Assembly: GCA_963702915.1 (NCBI GenBank)
Contig: OY969770.1
Span: 4,768,817-4,832,816, forward strand
Direction of reading: 5' to 3'
DNA: 64,000 nt
Source: Candidatus Acidiferrales bacterium
GTDB lineage: Bacteria; Acidobacteriota; Terriglobia; Acidiferrales; UBA7541
Part shown: in pieces, positions 3,276-62,816 of the stretch
Layout: every line of letters begins with the position of its first letter
Position numbering within the stretch: position 1 is the first letter of the stretch
Position numbers and translations under genes: made by a program
The notes under the pieces: model-generated
What the model saw: the letters and a program-made list of their open reading frames with translations, nothing else
What the model was told of the DNA's origin: nothing
Database searches by the model: none

Positions 3276-3548
3276 GGAAGAAATTGTACGCCGTAATTAA
3301 GCGGGGCGAATCGGCATTCGCAACGATGGCAATCTACTAGGCACTCCCGCCCCGCCCAAATTGCATATAATTGCATCGATTTAACATTGAGTATCTGCGA
3401 GGTCGAGAGCGGGGGAGAGGAAAATCTTGCAGACGCGAGGGCGAGTTTGGAATAGAGTATGGGTTGTCAGGCCTGAGATGAATCAACACAAAATTCGGAG
3501 AGCAGCCAAGAACTTGGAGTGGGTGTGTGCTGCGGTCAGGGAGGGCCA

Positions 3549-5096
3549 GTGGAGAATCGGGAAAAGTCTGAGGTAGAAGGCGGAGTATCGCGGCGCAAAT
3601 TCATCGGACAAACGGCGGCAGCGGCGCTGGGATTTACGATTGTGCCGCGGCGGGTGTTGGGAGGCGTGGGGTATGTTCCGCCGAGCGACAAAGTGAACAT
3701 TGCGTTTATCGGCGTGGGGGCGCAGGGTTTGCGCGTGATGCTACATTTTTTGAAGGAGCCCGACGTGCAGGGCGTGGCGGTATGCGATTGCAATAAATCC
3801 GGGGCGAACTATCCGCAATGGGGCACACACGAGTTTCGCGATTCCGTGCGGAAGCTGCTGGGCGTAGACAGCGGATGGGATTGGCTGAGCCCGGACGAGC
3901 CGCTGGAGTTGACGCATGCATTGCACGTGACGAGCGGAGTGGCGGGGCGCGAACCTTGCCAGAAGATTGTGGACGGGTACAACGGGACACAAAAGCGCTC
4001 TGGCGAATCTCGCGGCTGCGCGGCTTACAGCGATTTCCGGGTATTGCTGGAGAAGCAGAAAGACCTGGACGCCGTGGTGGTGTGCACGTCGGACAATTTG
4101 CACGCGGCGATATCCGCCGCGGCGATGAAGAAGCACAAGCATGTGTTTTGCCAGAAGCCTTTGACGCACACGATCTATGAGGCACGGCGAATTGCCGAGA
4201 TCGCGCGGGAGACAGGCGTGGCAACGCAGATTGCCGTGGGAAACCAGGCTTCGGAAGCTACGCGGTTGCTTTGCGAATGGATTTGGAGTGGCGCGATTGG
4301 TCCGGTGCGGGAGGTGAAGAACTGGTCGAGCCGTCCTTACTGGGCGCAAGGAGTGGACCGGCCGAAGGAAGTGGAAGCGGTGCCAGAAGGATTGGATTGG
4401 AACCTGTGGCTGGGGCCGGCGCCGGAGCGCCCATACAATCACGTTTACCTGCCGTTTGCATGGCGTGGGTGGGTGGACTTCGGATGCGGCGCGCTGGGCG
4501 ATATGGGCTGCTACAGCTATGACACGATCTTCCGCGTGTTGAAACTGGAAGCGCCGGTAAGCGTGGAGGCAAGTTCCACCGAACGCTACCCGGAGACTTA
4601 TCCGCAGGCTTCGATCATACGCTACAACTTTGCGGCGCGCGGAGAGATGCCGCCGGTGAAATTCACGTGGTATGACGGCGGTTTGAAACCGGAGCGGCCG
4701 GAGGAACTGGAAGAAGGACGTCCGTTGAAGGGAGACGGTGAAGAGGATGAAGGGCTGCTGTTCGTGGGAGACCGCGGGAAGATTCTTTGCTCGTTCAATG
4801 GTGAGAATCCGAAGCTGATTCCGCAGGCGAAGATGGATAGCTTTCAACAGCCGCCGAAGACTTTGCCGAGGTCACCCGGCAACGAGAGGGAATGGCTGGA
4901 CGCCTGCAAAGGCGGGAAGGACAAGCCGGGCGGGAACTTCGAGTTTTCGGGGAAGGTTACGGAAACATTGCTGCTGGGGAATGTGGCCTCGCAGATGGGA
5001 GAGAAACTCAGTTGGGATCGAGGCAATTTGAAGGTTAGCTCCGAGGCTGGGCAGAAGTTGGTGCGTCCGGAGCGGCGAAGCGGGTGGGAGCTGTAG
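3549..5096 (+). CDS. Gfo/Idh/MocA-family oxidoreductase with twin-arginine signal
   Basis: SRRKFI Tat motif; Rossmann IAFIGVGAQG; HVFCQKPL; GALGDMGCY. Start moved to GTG 3549 (ORF track 3519). Confidence 0.9.
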   Translation: MENREKSEVEGGVSRRKFIGQTAAAALGFTIVPRRVLGGVGYVPPSDKVNIAFIGVGAQGLRVMLHFLKEPDVQGVAVCDCNKSGANYPQWGTHEFRDSVRKLLGVDSGWDWLSPDEPLELTHALHVTSGVAGREPCQKIVDGYNGTQKRSGESRGCAAYSDFRVLLEKQKDLDAVVVCTSDNLHAAISAAAMKKHKHVFCQKPLTHTIYEARRIAEIARETGVATQIAVGNQASEATRLLCEWIWSGAIGPVREVKNWSSRPYWAQGVDRPKEVEAVPEGLDWNLWLGPAPERPYNHVYLPFAWRGWVDFGCGALGDMGCYSYDTIFRVLKLEAPVSVEASSTERYPETYPQASIIRYNFAARGEMPPVKFTWYDGGLKPERPEELEEGRPLKGDGEEDEGLLFVGDRGKILCSFNGENPKLIPQAKMDSFQQPPKTLPRSPGNEREWLDACKGGKDKPGGNFEFSGKVTETLLLGNVASQMGEKLSWDRGNLKVSSEAGQKLVRPERRSGWEL

Positions 5097-5105
5097 TCTC
5101 GCAGA

Positions 5106-5165
5106 CCTCAGGGGTTAAAACCCCTGGGTGGCAAGGGCTCTTCGGCACGGCTGAAGCCGTGCCCT
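5106..5165. repeat. Double-hairpin REP-like element, family A
   Basis: caggggt-TAAA-acccctg plus ggcacggc-TGAA-gccgtgcc; other copies at 15060, 25701 and 37593. Confidence 0.88.
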
Positions 5166-5294
5166 GACGGGACCTTTATAGGAAACGGTCCGAAACAGTT
5201 TTGGCAGGACGGCAGGAGCAGGGAACAGAACAATTTTGTGAATGCCCACTTGAGCGGAGAGGGATTTGTTAGCGAAAGGGGCAAGGAGGCTTCG

Positions 5295-13352: not shown

Positions 13353-14225
13353 TTAGTTGGAGTTGGACCAATCTTCTTCTAGGCGGCCCAGGGACTTGTG
13401 TGCGGCTTGGAGTTGATCGGCTAGGGGCGGGGCTTCGGGGCCGGATTTTTCTTTTAGTTCGAGGGTTAGGGGAAGATCGGCGGCGGCGGAAGCGGATTTT
13501 AGGATGGCTACGGCGGAGGGCCAATTGATGGTGCCTTCGTAGGGCGGGAGATGCTCGTCCTTTTCGCCGTGATTGTCGTGGATATGGGCGCTTATGACTC
13601 GATCGCGGAGGGAGTCGAAGGCTATAGCGATGCGGGTGTCTACGGGGCCTTCGGCTAGATTGGCGTGACCGATGTCGAAATTGAAGCGGACGGTAGTGAG
13701 GCGGGTTTCGTCCACAAAATTGCGGAGGTAGACGGGATCGCCCATTTCGCTGGGAGTGTTTTCGAGGCAGATGGTGACGCCGGCGTGGCGGGCGTGCAGG
13801 GTGAGATGTTCGAGGGAGCTGAAAGCGGCGTCGCGTTTGCGCGGGTCGGCGGTTTCGCGGGAGCCGCCCATGTGCAGGATCATGCGAGGGAAGGGGAGAT
13901 CGTCGGCGACGTCGAGGACGCGCTTCAGCTCGTCCATGGCTTCGATGCGGCGGACGCGTTCGACTTCGCAGATGGAGAGGGGCGTGCCGCCTTCGCGATT
14001 GAGGCTGAGGTCGCGGCTGGTGGGTGCATGGAGGGAAGCGAGTTGGAGGTGGCGATCAGCGAGGGATTGGGCGGTGGTGCGGACTTCCTGGGGGTTGGCG
14101 TAGTCGAAGTGGCTGCGGGTGGCGAAGATTTCGATGGCTTGAAAGCCGGAGGAGGAGATTTGGCCGAGGAGTTCGGGAGTTAGTTTTTTGGAGACGAAGA
14201 GGTAGGTGGAGAGGATTCGGAGCAT
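13353..14225 (-). CDS. Sugar-phosphate isomerase/epimerase-like TIM barrel
   Basis: IEIF, SLHAP, CLEN, NFDIGHAN, HIHDNHGEKDEHLPP motifs; start moved to ATG 14225. Confidence 0.85.
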   Translation of the reverse strand: MLRILSTYLFVSKKLTPELLGQISSSGFQAIEIFATRSHFDYANPQEVRTTAQSLADRHLQLASLHAPTSRDLSLNREGGTPLSICEVERVRRIEAMDELKRVLDVADDLPFPRMILHMGGSRETADPRKRDAAFSSLEHLTLHARHAGVTICLENTPSEMGDPVYLRNFVDETRLTTVRFNFDIGHANLAEGPVDTRIAIAFDSLRDRVISAHIHDNHGEKDEHLPPYEGTINWPSAVAILKSASAAADLPLTLELKEKSGPEAPPLADQLQAAHKSLGRLEEDWSNSN

Positions 14226-14436: not shown

Positions 14437-16329
14437 CTAATAGCCGAGGGCGGAGCCGTTATCGCGGGGGTCGGCTGCGCCGCAACGGTCGCCGGATTTA
14501 GGGTCGATGCCGATGGCGTTGATCAGACCGATGTGGCCTTTGCGCTTGACGGCGTGGCCGCGCTGCTCGAGTTGCTCCTCCATTTCTGGCGAGAAGAGCT
14601 TTTCCATTTGGATTTCATCGGGGAGCCACTGGTGATGGAAGCGCGGGGCGTTGATGGCGGACTGCGCGTCCATACCGAGGCGCATCCAGTTCAAGATGCT
14701 GAGCAGGGTTACGGAAATGATGGTGGGACCGCCAGGGGAGCCGGTGACGAAGCTGAGCTGGCCATCGCGTACAAGAATGGTGGGCGTCATGGAGCTGAGG
14801 GGACGTTTGCCGGGGCCGATGGCGTTGGCTTCGGATTGAATTAGGCCGAAGAGGGCATTGGGGACACCAGGTTGTGTGGTGAAATCGTCCATCTCGTCGT
14901 TGAGAAGGAAACCGGCGGAAGAGGTGACGTGAGAGCCAAAACTGCCGTTGAGCGTGGTGGTGCTGGCGACGGCGTTGCCGGCGGCGTCCACGACGGAGAA
15001 ATGCGTGGTGTGCGGGCCTTCCCCGAGGCTGATGATGACTTGTGGCATAAGCCCACGCTCCTCAGGGGTTAAAACCCCTAAATCTGCGAGGCCTTTCGGC
15101 ACGGCTGAAGCCGTGCCCTCCCCGGAACTATCCACCAAACGTCCTCTCGTACAAAGGCCTTGATTGCAGACGTGGGGAGTGCCCGCATGGATGAGTTTGC
15201 TGGAGGAGGCGTGGAGGGGATCGATGGTGGCGAACAATTCTTTGGCGTAGCAGGGATCGGTGAGGCCAGCGACGGGAACATTGGCGAAATCGGGATCGGC
15301 AAGATAGGCGGCGCGATCGGCGAAGATGCGGCGCATAACTTCGACGACGAGGTGGACGCTTTGGGGATCGTGCCAGCCTTTGAGCGGCACATCCTGGAGC
15401 ATGTTGAGGCCTTCGATGATGGCGACGCCACCGGAGCTGGGGGGCGGAGAGGAGAGGACTTCCCAGCGATGAGAATCGATGGTGTAGCTGGCACGGAGGA
15501 CATCGCGGATTTTGGGTTGGTAATGCGCGAGGTCATCGAGAGTGATGAGGCCATCCAATGCGGCCATGTCGCGAGCGAGCATTTGTGCCGTTTCGCCTTG
15601 ATAGAACTCGGCAGGGCCATTTTTGGCGATGCGTTTGAGAGTGGCGGCGAGTTCGGGTTGGCGCAGCGTGTCTCCGGCGTGAAAGAGATTGCCACCGTTC
15701 AGGAAAATGCGGCTGCTCATGGAGAAGCGTTGCAGGTCGTGACGCTCTTTCTGGAATTCACGGACGAGTTTTTCGCTGACGGGAAAACCTTGTTCGGCGA
15801 GGAGGATGGCGGGTTGCATAACGTCGGCGAGCTTCATGGTGCCGTGCGTTTTCAGCGCAAGGGCGAGGCCTGCGACGGTGCCGGGAATGGCGACGGAACG
15901 ATAGCCGATGGTGGAGGCGGTTTCGTCCAGCTTGCCATCGGGTCTGATGTACATGTCGCGGGTTGCTTTTGCGGGAGCGGTTTCGCGGTAATCGAAGAAG
16001 GTGGTTTTGCCGCTGGCGAGGCGCACGAGCATGAAGCCGCCACCACCGATATTCCCGGCGGCGGGTTCGACGACGGCGAGGGCGAAGGCGGTGGCGACGG
16101 CGGCGTCAATGGCATTGCCACCGCGTTTCAGGATTTCCACGCCGGCTTGTGAGGCGAGCGGCTCGTCGGTGGCCACCATGCCGTGGGAACCGCGGACAGG
16201 TTCGCGCGGCCAGTCTTTCGGGATATTGAAGTGGTCGCGGAATTCGGCGGCGGATTGCGCGGCGGAAGGGGTTGAGAAGAGAATGGGTGAGAAAAGAGCG
16301 GTGGCTACGAAGAGAAGAGTGCGTTTCAT
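14437..16329 (-). CDS. ggt: Gamma-glutamyltransferase with an in-frame palindromic-element insertion
   Basis: GGNAIDAAVA, GIGGGG-like NIGGGGF, DYRE, autocleavage site H-TTHFS, NDEMDDF, LSSMTP, GSPGG; signal peptide. Confidence 0.93.
   Translation of the reverse strand: MKRTLLFVATALFSPILFSTPSAAQSAAEFRDHFNIPKDWPREPVRGSHGMVATDEPLASQAGVEILKRGGNAIDAAVATAFALAVVEPAAGNIGGGGFMLVRLASGKTTFFDYRETAPAKATRDMYIRPDGKLDETASTIGYRSVAIPGTVAGLALALKTHGTMKLADVMQPAILLAEQGFPVSEKLVREFQKERHDLQRFSMSSRIFLNGGNLFHAGDTLRQPELAATLKRIAKNGPAEFYQGETAQMLARDMAALDGLITLDDLAHYQPKIRDVLRASYTIDSHRWEVLSSPPPSSGGVAIIEGLNMLQDVPLKGWHDPQSVHLVVEVMRRIFADRAAYLADPDFANVPVAGLTDPCYAKELFATIDPLHASSSKLIHAGTPHVCNQGLCTRGRLVDSSGEGTASAVPKGLADLGVLTPEERGLMPQVIISLGEGPHTTHFSVVDAAGNAVASTTTLNGSFGSHVTSSAGFLLNDEMDDFTTQPGVPNALFGLIQSEANAIGPGKRPLSSMTPTILVRDGQLSFVTGSPGGPTIISVTLLSILNWMRLGMDAQSAINAPRFHHQWLPDEIQMEKLFSPEMEEQLEQRGHAVKRKGHIGLINAIGIDPKSGDRCGAADPRDNGSALGY
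15060..15119. repeat. Family A element inside the ggt CDS
   Basis: cctcaggggttaaaacccct...tcggcacggctgaagccgtgccct. Confidence 0.9.
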
Positions 16330-16457
16330 GATGAAGAGAAAACACTAAGGGATTCTGGGGAGAGGGTCAAGGAGGATGGAGAGAAGCAAGAAGGAAAGAG
16401 GTAATGAAGCAAAGAAATAAAGAAACAGAGAAGAAACGTAGGAAGAGAAACCCAATA

Positions 16458-16569
16458 GCACAGTCAGGAGTGACTGTGCCACAGGCTGAGTGGAGAAAAG
16501 GCACGGAGCTCCCGCCAGAATGTGGCGGGCCCAGTGCTACAGGCGCCAATCTAAAGATTGGCCACTACT
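16458..16569 (-). repeat. Mosaic of three REP-like palindromes (GTGG/GTAG/GTAG)
   Basis: gcacagtcaggagtgactgtgccac; cccgccagaatgtggcgggcccagtgctac; gccaatctaaagattggccactac. Confidence 0.8.
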
Positions 16570-21238: not shown

Positions 21239-21437
21239 GGACCGCGTCCGAAGGCGGTCCTAACGGGAGTGAAGTGGCGAAAAGCGAATTAAGCCCACAA
21301 GCAAAAGACATATGTGGATAACCAACCCAAGACCCAGGCACACACTCCGTGCCTGGGGCAACCGGCTTCCTTCGCCGATCAGGAGATCGGCGTTCCCAGA
21401 AAAACCCAAGAGCACAGTCAGGAGTGACTGTGCTACA
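21239..21437. repeat. Mosaic of three different hairpin repeats between convergent genes
   Basis: ggaccgcgtccgaaggcggtcc; ccaggcac-acactcc-gtgcctgg (also at 61274-61313); gcacagtcaggagtgactgtgctac (also at 16458 and 56990). Confidence 0.8.
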
Positions 21438-21451
21438 GGCTACATCAGTAT

Positions 21452-24425: not shown

Positions 24426-25610
24426 ATGGCCACCAAGACACCGCCGTTGACCGGGCACCCTCCGGCAGCGAGCCTGACGAATGAAGAAATCCTGCGATAC
24501 AGCCGGCACCTGATCATGCCGGAAGTAGGCATGGAGGGTCAGCTGAAACTGAAAGGCGCAAAAGTGCTGCTGATCGGGACGGGCGGCTTGGGTGCGCCGC
24601 TGGGGCTGTACCTGACGGCTGCGGGAGTGGGCAAGATCGGGCTGGTGGATTTCGATGTGGTGGATTTCACGAACCTGCAACGGCAGGTGACGTTTGGAAC
24701 CAGTGACGTGGGCAAGCCGAAAACCGAAGCGGCGAAGGCGCGCCTGAGCAACCTGAATCCCGACGTGGAAATCGCGACGTACGAAACGAAGTTGACCAGC
24801 GAGAATGCCCTGGAGCTGTTCAAGGATTACGACGTCATCGCGGACGGCACCGACAATTTCCCCACGAGATATCTGGTGAACGACGCTTGTATTCTGCTGG
24901 GCAAGCCGAATGTTTACGGGTCCATTTTCCGATTTGAAGGGCAGGTGACGGTGTTCGGGATGCCGGATGGCCCGTGCTATCGCTGCCTGTATCCGGAGCC
25001 GCCCCCGCCGGGGCTGGTGCCTTCGTGCGCGGAGGGCGGAGTGCTGGGTGTGCTCCCCGGGATTATCGGTTCACTGCAGGCGATGGAAACGATCAAGCTG
25101 ATCCTGGGCCGGGGAGACTCCCTGGTGGGAAGGCTGCTGCTGTTCGATGCGCTGGCGGTGAAGTTTCGGGAACTGAAGCTGCGCAAGAACCCACATTGCC
25201 CGATGTGCGGAACGCATCGCAAAATTCACGAGTTGATTGATTACAACGAGTTTTGCGGCATACGGGGAGAAGAAGAGCCGGAAGTGAATCTGCACGTACC
25301 GGAAATTACGCCGCACGAGCTGAAGGAGCGGCTGGACCGGGGCGACGAATTGTTCATTCTGGATGTTCGCGAGCCGCATGAATACCAGATCTGCAATTTG
25401 AAGGGACACTTGATCCCCCTGGGCGAATTGCCGCGGCGCGTGCATGAACTGGACTCTTCGCATGAAATTGTGGCGCATTGCCGGAGCGGGAAGCGTTCGG
25501 CGGAAGCGGTGGATTTTTTGCGCAAAGCGGGGTTCCGCAAGGTGTTGAATTTGCGCGGTGGCATCCTGTCGTGGTCCACGGAAGTGGATCCGAGCATGCC
25601 ACGCTACTAA
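24426..25610 (+). CDS. moeB: MoeB/ThiF adenylyltransferase fused to a rhodanese domain (MoeZ type)
   Basis: RYSRH, GTGGLG, NLQRQ, CYRC and CPMC zinc pairs, C-terminal HCRSGKRS. Confidence 0.9.
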   Translation: MATKTPPLTGHPPAASLTNEEILRYSRHLIMPEVGMEGQLKLKGAKVLLIGTGGLGAPLGLYLTAAGVGKIGLVDFDVVDFTNLQRQVTFGTSDVGKPKTEAAKARLSNLNPDVEIATYETKLTSENALELFKDYDVIADGTDNFPTRYLVNDACILLGKPNVYGSIFRFEGQVTVFGMPDGPCYRCLYPEPPPPGLVPSCAEGGVLGVLPGIIGSLQAMETIKLILGRGDSLVGRLLLFDALAVKFRELKLRKNPHCPMCGTHRKIHELIDYNEFCGIRGEEEPEVNLHVPEITPHELKERLDRGDELFILDVREPHEYQICNLKGHLIPLGELPRRVHELDSSHEIVAHCRSGKRSAEAVDFLRKAGFRKVLNLRGGILSWSTEVDPSMPRY

Positions 25611-25700
25611 GGATTGCGTCTTTGACGCGCTGTCGGCGAACCGCGCCTCGCAATTGCTTGAGCCTAATTCACAAATCAGAAAAGGTGTGAACCCTCGATT

Positions 25701-25760
25701 CCTCAGGGGCTGAAGCCCACGCTCTCTAAGGATTTTTCGGCACGGCTGAAGCCGTGCCCT
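25701..25760. repeat. Family A element
   Basis: cctcaggggctgaagccc...tcggcacggctgaagccgtgccct. Confidence 0.88.
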
Positions 25761-25864
25761 CCCGGTAATCACTCGTGAGATGGTTGGTTGAAATTCTTGA
25801 GGCAGATGGATATCTTGGGGGAGCTATTACGCCGTTAAATTGAGGTTGCTGGACGGAGGATACC

Positions 25865-37513: not shown

Positions 37514-37592
37514 TGTTGAGTGCCGGGAATACTAATAAAGAGTGCGGAGTGCTTAGGGGCTTAAGAGTCTGTGTGAGAACTAGAAAAACGGC

Positions 37593-37653
37593 CCTCAGCG
37601 GCTAAAGCCGCAGCGCAAATGCAACAGTTACGGCATGGCTGAAGCCATGCCCT
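37593..37653. repeat. Family A element between convergent genes
   Basis: cctcagcggctaaagccgc...ggcatggctgaagccatgccct, with compensatory changes. Confidence 0.85.
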
Positions 37654-37677
37654 GACGAAAAAAATGTGGGTTAGGCG

Positions 37678-56884: not shown

Positions 56885-57016
56885 TTAGGTCGTAAGAGCC
56901 CACCCTTACACACCAAGGGTGGGGCACCCTCAAGATCATTGGAGATGAGGCGTGACTGGGAAAACTCAAGAGCACGGAGAAACCCAAGAGCACAGACAGG
57001 AGTGTCTGTGCCACAG
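56885..57016. repeat. Composite repeat, partner copy at 60531-60636
   Basis: Identical 23-mer ttaggtcgtaagagcccaccctt, shared ggggcaccctcaaga and the acag..a.gagtgtctgtgc hairpin. Confidence 0.8.
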
Positions 57017-57059
57017 GAAGCTGGATGCTGCGAGGGGAAAAACAAGGCGCGCGGTTGGG

Positions 57060-60530: not shown

Positions 60531-60636
60531 TTAGGTCGTAAGAGCCCACCCTTCGCAAAAGGCGCGAAGGATGGGGCACCCTCAAGAACAGGGGAATGGC
60601 GGCGTGACGAAGAACAGCCAAGAGTGTCTGTGCTAC
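60531..60636. repeat. Composite repeat, partner copy at 56885-57016
   Basis: Same blocks in the same order and orientation as the 56885 copy. Confidence 0.8.
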
Positions 60637-60657
60637 CGGATTCCCGAGCAACGCGCT

Positions 60658-61060: not shown

Positions 61061-61394
61061 GGAATTGCAGCCTCAAATTTGAAGTCAGGGAGCGATTCAT
61101 CGCACAGAATACGTGCGATGGAAAACCGTACCTCCGCTCCGGGACGGCAAAAGGCGCCGTCCCTCCGGTCGGAATGACAAGGTTTGGGAGTTGGATGGCG
61201 TGGTTGGGGACAGATTGGCGTCCTATCCGTCTGAACCCAAAAGAACGGTCGCTTTGAAGCTCAGGGCAAGAGGAACCCAAGACCCAGGCACACACTCCGT
61301 GCCTGGGGCAACCAGCAAGTCAGGTGATTCTTCGCGCGCAGGAGGAAAAGCGGGGGTAAGGTATAATGCCGCACTGGGGAAGTTGCAGCGAAAC

Positions 61395-62441: not shown

Positions 62442-62517
62442 AGATTTTTTCGCAAAGCGCCTTGGACGCGGTTGCAAGAAAATCCCAATTAACCTCTAAG
62501 TCCGAAGTTGAAGAGGG

Positions 62518-62672
62518 ATTCCTCCGCTCCGGGACGGCAAAGGGCGCCGTCCCTCCGGTCGGAATGACACGTTTTGTTGATAGGTTGATGGAGGGGAATG
62601 CAAATTCGGAGTTGAAGAGAGATTCCTCCGCTCCGGTGGGGCCAAAAGCGCCGTCCCTTCGGTCGGAATGAC
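62518..62672. repeat. Two tandem GATyyCTC...CGGTCGGAATGAC elements (family E)
   Basis: gattcctccgctccgggacggcaaagggcgccgtccctccggtcggaatgac and a variant; related copies at about 61128-61178, 14343-14416 and 28200-28235. Confidence 0.85.
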
Positions 62673-62816
62673 ACATTTTGGAGGCGTGAGAATACACTTT
62701 CGAGTTTCAAAATAGAGAAACGGATAGAGCGTGCCAGTGAGAGGCGGAGTTGCAATCCTCGCACATTCGATGGGCGTGCCGTTGACGTTCGGCGTAGGGT
62801 TTAAAAAGATATAGGA

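Follow-up and report, generated by a model that had tools for sequence, protein, structure and literature searches.

The ggt gene and its insert

The DNA analysed here is a stretch of 64,000 nucleotides (the window) from a Candidatus Acidiferrales bacterium (assembly GCA_963702915.1, contig OY969770.1, positions 4,768,817 to 4,832,816), and the element in question is a copy of a palindromic repeat, family A, that lies in frame inside ggt, the gene for a gamma-glutamyltransferase (GGT) precursor. The genome is a single contig of 5,556,121 bp with 57% G+C; coordinates are those of the window unless marked as genome coordinates. The ggt coding sequence runs on the minus strand (window 14437..16329) and specifies 630 aa. 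Its product matches PF01019 with 543.6 bits over residues 65–625 and scores 489.7 bits against TIGR00066 (NCBIfam), for which the cut-off is 357.85. Thr441 of the H-TTHFS motif (codon 15007..15009, minus strand) corresponds in alignment to Thr391 of the E. coli enzyme (2E0W) and is invariant in 30 sequences, and the small chain of mature E. coli GGT (2DBU chain B) begins opposite residue 441. Invariant columns of this alignment cover Thr441, Thr442, His443, Gly533 and Gly534, although the alignment includes the ggt product itself, so that it matches these columns by construction. Given the family models passed and the presence of the catalytic threonine and the invariant residues, the sequence identifies the product as a gamma-glutamyltransferase, a T03 N-terminal nucleophile (Ntn) hydrolase. 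The sole other GGT-like gene in the genome (genome 485062-486639) is 29% identical.

GGT cleaves itself, and the linker preceding the threonine is then left as the C-terminal end of the large subunit. In the present protein the sequence leading to the catalytic threonine is ...CTRGRLVDSSGEGTASAVPKGLADLGVLTPEERGLMPQVIISLGEGPH-T441-THFS, and window ~15040-15160 is read as ...NQGLCTRGRLVDSSGEGTASAVPKGLADLGVLTPEERGLMPQVIISLGEGPH-TTHFS. The E. coli T391A precursor structure (2E0W) aligns to residues 43–384 and 437–623, and the insert falls between these two segments. The alignments to 2E0W and 2DBU thus mark Thr441 as the nucleophile and place the insert (residues ~398-428) in the linker before the scissile bond.

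The insert was delimited by comparison with orthologues. A scan of species-representative genomes gave 80 GGT loci, all from Acidobacteriota-type metagenome bins, the closest being labelled Candidatus Acidiferrum, Acidoferrales or gp2. In a DNA alignment with six close orthologues a single, clean gap of 93 nt stands opposite window 15046-15138 (minus strand), with boundaries uncertain by a few bases, and a gap of 31 codons was also found in the protein alignment, where 21 of 21 orthologues, the closest at 84–89% identity, were without the insert, LVDSSGEGTASAVPKGLADLGVLTPEERGLM. The close orthologues, with 81–89% identity among the top ones, lack the DNA element, are colinear with ggt in the conserved sequence to either side and have 596–601 residues. 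The more distant orthologues at loci L036, L038 and L045 have an unrelated extra 15–20 residues at the same site, which indicates that the loop is naturally variable in length. An AlphaFold2 model built from the 30 sequences had a predicted template modelling score (pTM) of 0.84, and its predicted local distance difference test (pLDDT) values fell below 50 only at residues 1–34 and 390–439.

These data can be set against a first-pass annotation made from the letters of the DNA, which had proposed that a repeat of ~60 bp lies in ggt without breaking the frame, in a flexible segment ~15 residues before the catalytic threonine. The frame is indeed unbroken, as the length of the insert is divisible by three and the 630-aa GGT is intact, and a flexible segment is in keeping both with the low pLDDT of residues 390–439 and with the variable loop length among orthologues. 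The length was underestimated, the recognisable element being about 70–75 nt and the net insert 93 nt. The distance of ~15 residues comes to 16 for the peptide encoded by the element (residues 403–424) and to 12 for the whole insert, both counted from their ends to Thr441. An equally long loop in orthologues that lack the element, a possibility raised there, is contradicted by the close orthologues, whose loop is shorter by 31 residues.

A dispersed repeat of two hairpins

The recognisable core of the element in ggt lies at 15058..15131 on the plus strand, antisense to ggt (nhmmer, 60–75 bits), and blastn matches of this copy to others cover 15060-15122 and extend up to 15131. It has two perfect hairpins on the plus strand, CCTCAGGGGTTAAAACCCCT (15060-15079) and CGGCACGGCTGAAGCCGTGCCCT (15097-15119). 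Hairpin 1 proper, AGGGGTTAAAACCCCT (15064..15079, plus strand), is preceded by a conserved CCTC at 15060-15063, and hairpin 2, GGCACGGCTGAAGCCGTGCC (15098..15117, plus strand), has a stem of 8 bp and a loop of 4 nt and is the best-conserved portion both of family A and of the transposase flanks described below. About 14 nt at one end of the 93-nt insert and 7–16 nt at its other end could not be assigned to the element. An nhmmer alignment that continued leftwards to 15030 into conserved ggt was attributed to chance, being weak and overlapping codons conserved in all orthologues. An origin of the repeat from ggt was ruled out, given that the orthologues lack it and that the family is spread over the class and linked to a transposase. 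The predicted folding energy of the 93-nt stretch is -45.1 kcal/mol (z = -4.2, with none of 200 shuffles as good), as expected of any family-A copy.

Three further copies are present in the window, all on the plus strand and between long open reading frames (ORFs), just past the 3' ends at 5096, 25610 and 37513: one at 5104..5169, 8 nt past the stop of ORF 3519..5096; one at 25700..25764, downstream of ORF 24426..25610; and one of the GCGG/CATGG subfamily at 37591..37658, between convergent ORFs. Repeat finding in the window groups 5136, 15090, 25731 and 37624 as one family (D13), and this and the nhmmer search confirm the match, claimed in the first-pass annotation, of the ggt element to a repeat that is intergenic at 5106, 25701 and 37593. 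The four copies share 41 invariant columns, mostly in and around both hairpins, and an exact 59-mer of the ggt copy gave no chance match in 100 shuffles.

Iterated nhmmer searching of the genome gave 94 family-A hits, or about 90 copies, the best other copy being 90% identical to that in ggt, whose sequence differs from all the others. In the core of ~70 nt, CCTCAG and hairpin 1 are followed by a spacer that varies between 15 and 25 nt, by hairpin 2 and lastly by CCCTGACG or CCCTCCC. Three subfamilies were distinguished, a GGGG/TTAAAA type which includes the ggt copy, a GCGG/CATGG type and a CCGGGG type. About 11 copies of the GGGG/TTAAAA type are full-length (133–145 nt), with extra hairpins in inverted orientation on the outside, CTAGAAGyTATCTCATAAAT ... 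ATTTATGAGATGGCTTCTAG. Agreement of the ggt copy with the full-length profile is confined to its centre, the terminal inverted repeats being unrecognisable there, and by eye the spacer between its hairpins differs from the subfamily consensus at 6 of 17 positions. No longer autonomous element sharing the full-length terminal repeats was found in the genome, where the pairs of such repeats are element-sized only. No Rfam family reached its gathering threshold anywhere in the window, and near the element there was only a chance-level snoRNA match. Copy strand, in which elements of the IS200/IS605 type are expected to be biased relative to replication direction, gave counts of 25/21 and 4/12; the cumulative GC skew, lowest at 0.83 Mb and highest at 5.54 Mb, gives no clean two-arm picture.

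Two other repeat families were noticed in the window. One is palindromic (AGCACAGTCAGGAGTGACTGTGC..., at 16444-16487, 21398-21441, 56976-57019 and 60611-60640, with ~90 blastn hits in the genome) and has a copy ~115 nt before the start codon of ggt. The other (CCTCCGCTCCGGGACGGCAAAGGGCGCCGTCCCTCCGGTCGGAATGACA) lies at 61108-61186, 62498-62576 and 62602-62680 and has ~54 blastn hits in the genome.

Inverted units of the repeat flank a tyrosine transposase

Eight genes of the genome matched Pfam Y1_Tnp. One of these (genome 1115799-1116248, minus strand) stands between inverted and complete family-A units (1115723-1115795 and 1116251-1116315), whose hairpin 2 lies on the outside. Its product has the motifs PDHFH and YIWENP and scores 109.6 bits against NF047646 (NCBIfam, REP-associated tyrosine transposase, where REP stands for repetitive extragenic palindrome), for which the cut-off is 80. 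The same architecture of transposase and repeats was seen at 4 of 21 homologous loci of relatives, in two families of the order; the relatives concerned are two genomes of other families (61% identity) and two of the same genus, and one of these bracketed loci has a compensatory stem variant, GGCACGAC/GTCGTGCC.

A wider set of 80 homologous transposase loci, each from a different species across Terriglobia, was then considered. Hairpin 2 is present in inverted orientation and at a fixed distance on both flanks at 49 of the 80 loci and on one flank at 9 more, giving 107 flank units. Of these units, 103 have hairpin 1 as well, and 846 of 856 stem positions are paired, several variants being changed on both sides of the stem. 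The CTGACG (CCCTGACG) that follows hairpin 2, which on the other strand is a CGTC foot, was found in 43 of the 107 units and on both flanks in this genome, while 41 of the 107 have TTCA in place of the CGTC foot and GTAG is absent. The foot of the ggt copy, CCCTCCCC, is neither CGTC nor TTCA.

The distribution of the repeat itself was followed with exact 20–23-mers. These were found in 24 of 41 relatives and, in a phylum-wide sample, in 8 of 12 genomes from a different family of this class and in the one other genome of the same family, the present genome having the highest number of copies; the 137 sampled genomes that belong to other classes had none. The family-A repeat is the inverted flanking unit of a REP-associated transposase of the Y1/HUH (IS200/IS605-like) kind, whose gene is conserved across Terriglobia.

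The hairpin-2 stem variant GGCACGAC/GTCGTGCC, as against GGCACGGC/GCCGTGCC, was observed at locus L119 (G005:C29) and in 17 of the 107 flank units (L129-L208). That transposase lineages or paralogues are paired with a stem variant of their own suggests co-variation of enzyme and repeat. The seven further Y1/HUH genes of the genome lie at 2291841-2292305, 5366257-5366877, 2137965-2138597, 236281-237012, 13445-14008, 1192755-1193330 and 245020-245880. Among those tested, two more products pass the REP-associated tyrosine transposase model, with 85 and 110 bits, and these genes may be the partners of other repeat families.

A single open frame and other genes that carry it

Translation of the 133-nt consensus in six frames gave stops in five; the sole open frame, RSHLINGFREGTASAVPKSSGNSGVLTPEVHLLVARSIYEITS (RSHLINGFREGTASAVPKSSGNSGVLTPEV...), is the one read in ggt, in a dnaE-family gene, in a reductase gene, in a PMT-family gene and in a membrane protein gene. 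Within the core alone a further frame, SGVKTPEF..FGTAEAVPS, is free of stops, and purL uses this one. All copies in the genome were screened for long ORFs spanning them, followed by Pfam searches and by comparison with genomes of the same genus. Five genes besides ggt, six in all, were found to have an in-frame copy together with an empty site in relatives, and only about 6–10% of family-A copies are intragenic.

In the DnaE-family polymerase (genome 222603-226484) a full-length element stands between the HHH_6 and OB-fold domains and is missing from the sister genome, G005. The sulfite/nitrite reductase (genome 794089-796347) has an insert of ~175 residues that splits the NIR_SIR domain and is lacking in 12 of 12 matching relatives. 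This insert is pieced together, as a mosaic, from at least three dispersed families: family A, a family of ~65 copies encoding SRHSERSPRSEESLLDL and one of ~50 copies encoding CHSDRSDPAFSSAPLFGAPGRGAEESL. In the PMT-family glycosyltransferase (genome 1648028-1649785) the insert is 30 residues; G005 is without it and the matches in G023 and G015 are ~30 residues short. The membrane protein (genome 1881114-1882847) has ~22 additional residues, again missing from G005. The copy in purL (genome 3530544-3533030, 23 residues) is degenerate, having lost its hairpins and kept its peptide; G023, G017 and G012 are without it and G005 has it. An in-frame insert can therefore persist through speciation in an essential enzyme. 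The inference of the first-pass annotation, that a peptide-creating repeat like the Rickettsia palindromic elements (RPEs) operates in Acidobacteriota, is upheld by these genes, in four of which besides ggt the frame GTASAVP...GVLTPE is used, with purL using the other frame and each of them having an empty site in relatives.

Some further observations concern these and similar genes. The motif PDRRSPFADR is duplicated in the reductase insert; the relatives compared for this gene are of the same genus. The DnaE-family gene, which is a replicative polymerase or an error-prone paralogue and appears to be absent from some relatives, also contains SGEWRVA(S/R) twice, one stretch of ...IPRLRADENHRPSAPFDCAQGKRDDKS and a run rich in Ser and Thr, and these look like further repeat-derived inserts. 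In an HlyD-family gene (genome 832883-834232) and a TPR gene (genome 1921170-1922672) an open-frame copy stands at or beside the predicted signal peptide and the sister genome differs; these two were not counted, and the element may supply them with a start codon or an N-terminal extension. A pilin-like gene (genome 4405468-4406994) and a DinB-like gene (genome 229308-231002) were rejected as hosts, the copy being upstream of the real start. The ORFs at genome positions 3143549, 5212085, 3112208, 4424502 and 2296800 have a non-coding-looking composition.

Interpretation of the ggt insert

Taken together, the results make it very probable that a transposase-linked repeat has inserted into ggt and has been kept as harmless, with GGT functional and the added residues a passenger peptide without a function of its own. 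By analogy with IS200/IS605 elements and REP-associated tyrosine transposases (RAYTs), the two-hairpin unit would be processed at its hairpins in single-stranded form, by a cut-and-paste or a copying route. These enzymes act on single-stranded DNA, recognise hairpins and make no target duplication. Insertions into genes would survive only where the sole stop-free frame is read and where the protein tolerates extra residues. The ggt copy, antisense to the gene, adds 31 residues to a linker that is variable in length and predicted to be disordered, and after self-cleavage at Thr441 this linker, insert included, would become the C-terminal tail of the large subunit. Judged from its sequence, GGT is most likely still made, self-processed and active.

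Several points weigh against this account. Inspection of the ends of ~10 full-length copies revealed no consistent target-site duplication, and no target motif was found. Mobilisation of the repeat by the transposase is argued from analogy alone. About 20 nt of the 93-nt insert have no recognisable origin in the element and the ggt copy is without the outer terminal hairpins of the full-length subfamily. If the insertion is recent, the intact frame says little about function. Finally, autoprocessing needs a positioned linker before the scissile bond, and therefore 31 extra residues placed 12 residues upstream could slow or block maturation.

This last point leads to the idea that ggt has been inactivated and is a young pseudogene, its frame happening to be intact because the element is stop-free when read in that frame, with the scissile bond mispositioned and the precursor never maturing. 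The insert does end only 12 residues before the autocleavage threonine, in a segment aligning with the pre-cleavage linker of the E. coli enzyme; both hairpins are still perfect, which is compatible with a recent event, and a distant paralogue exists at genome 485062-486639. However, that paralogue, at 29% identity, is an unlikely replacement for ggt, and the divergence of the spacer (6 of 17 positions) indicates that the copy is not brand new. GGT has the shared residue at every invariant column of the 30-sequence alignment (of which it is itself a member), distant and otherwise conserved orthologues have unrelated residues at the same site, and the equivalent insert in purL has persisted across speciation. 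Since the site is naturally variable and the protein otherwise fully conserved, inactivation is considered unlikely.

The perfect hairpins, retained while the spacer diverged, and the strength of the fold relative to shuffled sequence might also be read as a sign that they are kept for a role of the nucleic acid within ggt, such as ribosome pausing, transcript stabilisation or an internal regulatory site. This is highly improbable, as the structure is common to every copy of the family anywhere and is explained by recognition by the transposase, the older purL copy has lost its hairpins and kept its peptide, and nothing comparable is seen in ggt of any relative. An assembly artefact, in which a mis-join or a long-read consensus error put the repeat into ggt, would be favoured by the multi-copy nature of the element and was mentioned in the first-pass annotation. 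It is scarcely credible: conserved GGT is colinear and in frame on both sides, unlike what a mis-join would leave, and both sides lie on the one contig that makes up the 5.56-Mb genome; the length of the insert is divisible by three, and no other copy has the same sequence, the best being 90% identical; and five other genes are alike, one of them also in the independently assembled sister genome.

The tolerated insertion of a transposase-linked repeat, therefore, remains the preferred explanation. A bolder extension is that this is a living system, in which the class-wide transposase is still mobilising its two-hairpin flank and repeatedly decorating proteins such as GGT, the DnaE-family polymerase, PurL and sulfite reductase. 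We regard this as possible but doubtful. Were it true, it would provide the missing enzyme for coding insertions of the RPE type and a tractable model of their origin and tolerance, and the CGTC-type foot of many copies does resemble orphan CGTC repeats including RPE-4 and RPE-6 of Rickettsia. As the foot is inconstant, CGTC in some units, TTCA in nearly as many and neither in ggt, family A is only a candidate member of a CGTC superfamily.

The decoration of proteins by selfish palindromes is not peculiar to reduced intracellular genomes, as it also occurs in a large genome of a free-living soil acidobacterium, and here the enzyme that is likely to mobilise the repeat can be named. For annotation, odd low-complexity loops in conserved acidobacterial proteins (GTASAVP...GVLTPE and similar) should be taken as repeat-derived and not as functional motifs. 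For enzymology, the ggt insert offers a natural test of how far the pre-cleavage linker of an Ntn hydrolase tolerates extra sequence.

Comparison with known systems

REPs and their REPtrons, with RAYT tyrosine transposases, were reportedly described by Nunvar in 2010, Bertels and Rainey in 2011 and Ton-Hoang in 2012. Family A resembles them in being a short hairpin repeat dispersed mostly just past gene ends, in having one Y1/HUH transposase gene between inverted copies, with the RAYT model passed and compensatory changes in the stems, and in having occasional intragenic in-frame copies. It differs in that the unit is two different hairpins in tandem (~66 nt) and not a single palindrome of 20–40 nt, in that the GTAG tag is lacking and a CGTC-like tag (CGTCAG before hairpin 2) occurs in only 43 of 107 units, and in that one subfamily has outer terminal hairpins and a form of 133–145 nt like that of a miniature inverted-repeat transposable element (MITE).

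A transposase bracketed by inverted repeats is termed a REPtron, or a TIRtron if the flanking repeats are long (Di Nocera 2013, PMC3733652). The same work describes a sharply defined TIRYT group in Terriglobus, Koribacter, Acidobacterium and Granulicella, and the legend to its Figure 9 mentions 'double palindromic TIRs' (terminal inverted repeats) among those flanking TIRYT genes; these are likely to be the family-A unit. Intragenic in-frame REPs are recorded there in Opitutus terrae, Rickettsia conorii and Thauera, including in genes of the DnaE/DnaE2 type (PMC3733652), and in-frame intragenic REPs and MITEs are reported from Opitutus, Thauera and others (PMC3733652, PMC10969869). Thus intragenic REPs and acidobacterial TIRtrons were already known in 2013 (PMC3733652). 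The literature searched contained no report of coding insertions by the present acidobacterial repeat and none of ggt as a host. What is new is the phylum, the host gene and the position beside an autoprocessing site, together with how many housekeeping genes are decorated in one free-living bacterium and how clearly a coding repeat is linked to a conserved transposase.

In-frame fusions are also made by other bacterial MITEs, namely ERIC, BOX, QMITE1 and the Anabaena MITEs (PMC10969869). Like these, family A is short and non-autonomous, has ~25-nt terminal inverted repeats in its full-length subfamily and fuses in frame with ORFs. Unlike MITEs, it has no target-site duplication that could be found, its partner is a Y1/HUH enzyme acting on hairpins and not a DDE transposase, and the ggt copy is without terminal repeats.

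The precedent named in the first-pass annotation was the RPEs (Ogata et al. 2000, 2002; summarised in PMC10969869), from which in-frame decoration of genes is best known and in three families of which nearly half of the copies are intragenic. The two share a palindromic nature, one conserved open frame, in-frame insertion into unrelated housekeeping genes, compatibility with the protein fold and the addition of a peptide of tens of residues. This likeness means that family A works like an RPE and not that it belongs among them, being based on behaviour and not on RPE sequences. The host is of another phylum, lives free in soil and has a genome of 5.6 Mb, not a reduced intracellular one, and ~6–10% of family-A copies are intragenic as against the nearly half reported for three RPE families. 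CGTC-tagged repeats, RPE-4 and RPE-6 among them, are without an associated transposase (PMC3733652), whereas for family A the cognate transposase is identifiable. The coding insertion seen in the first-pass annotation stands, and the element is the flanking repeat of a REP-associated tyrosine transposase, of the REP/TIRtron type, and not an orphan palindrome.

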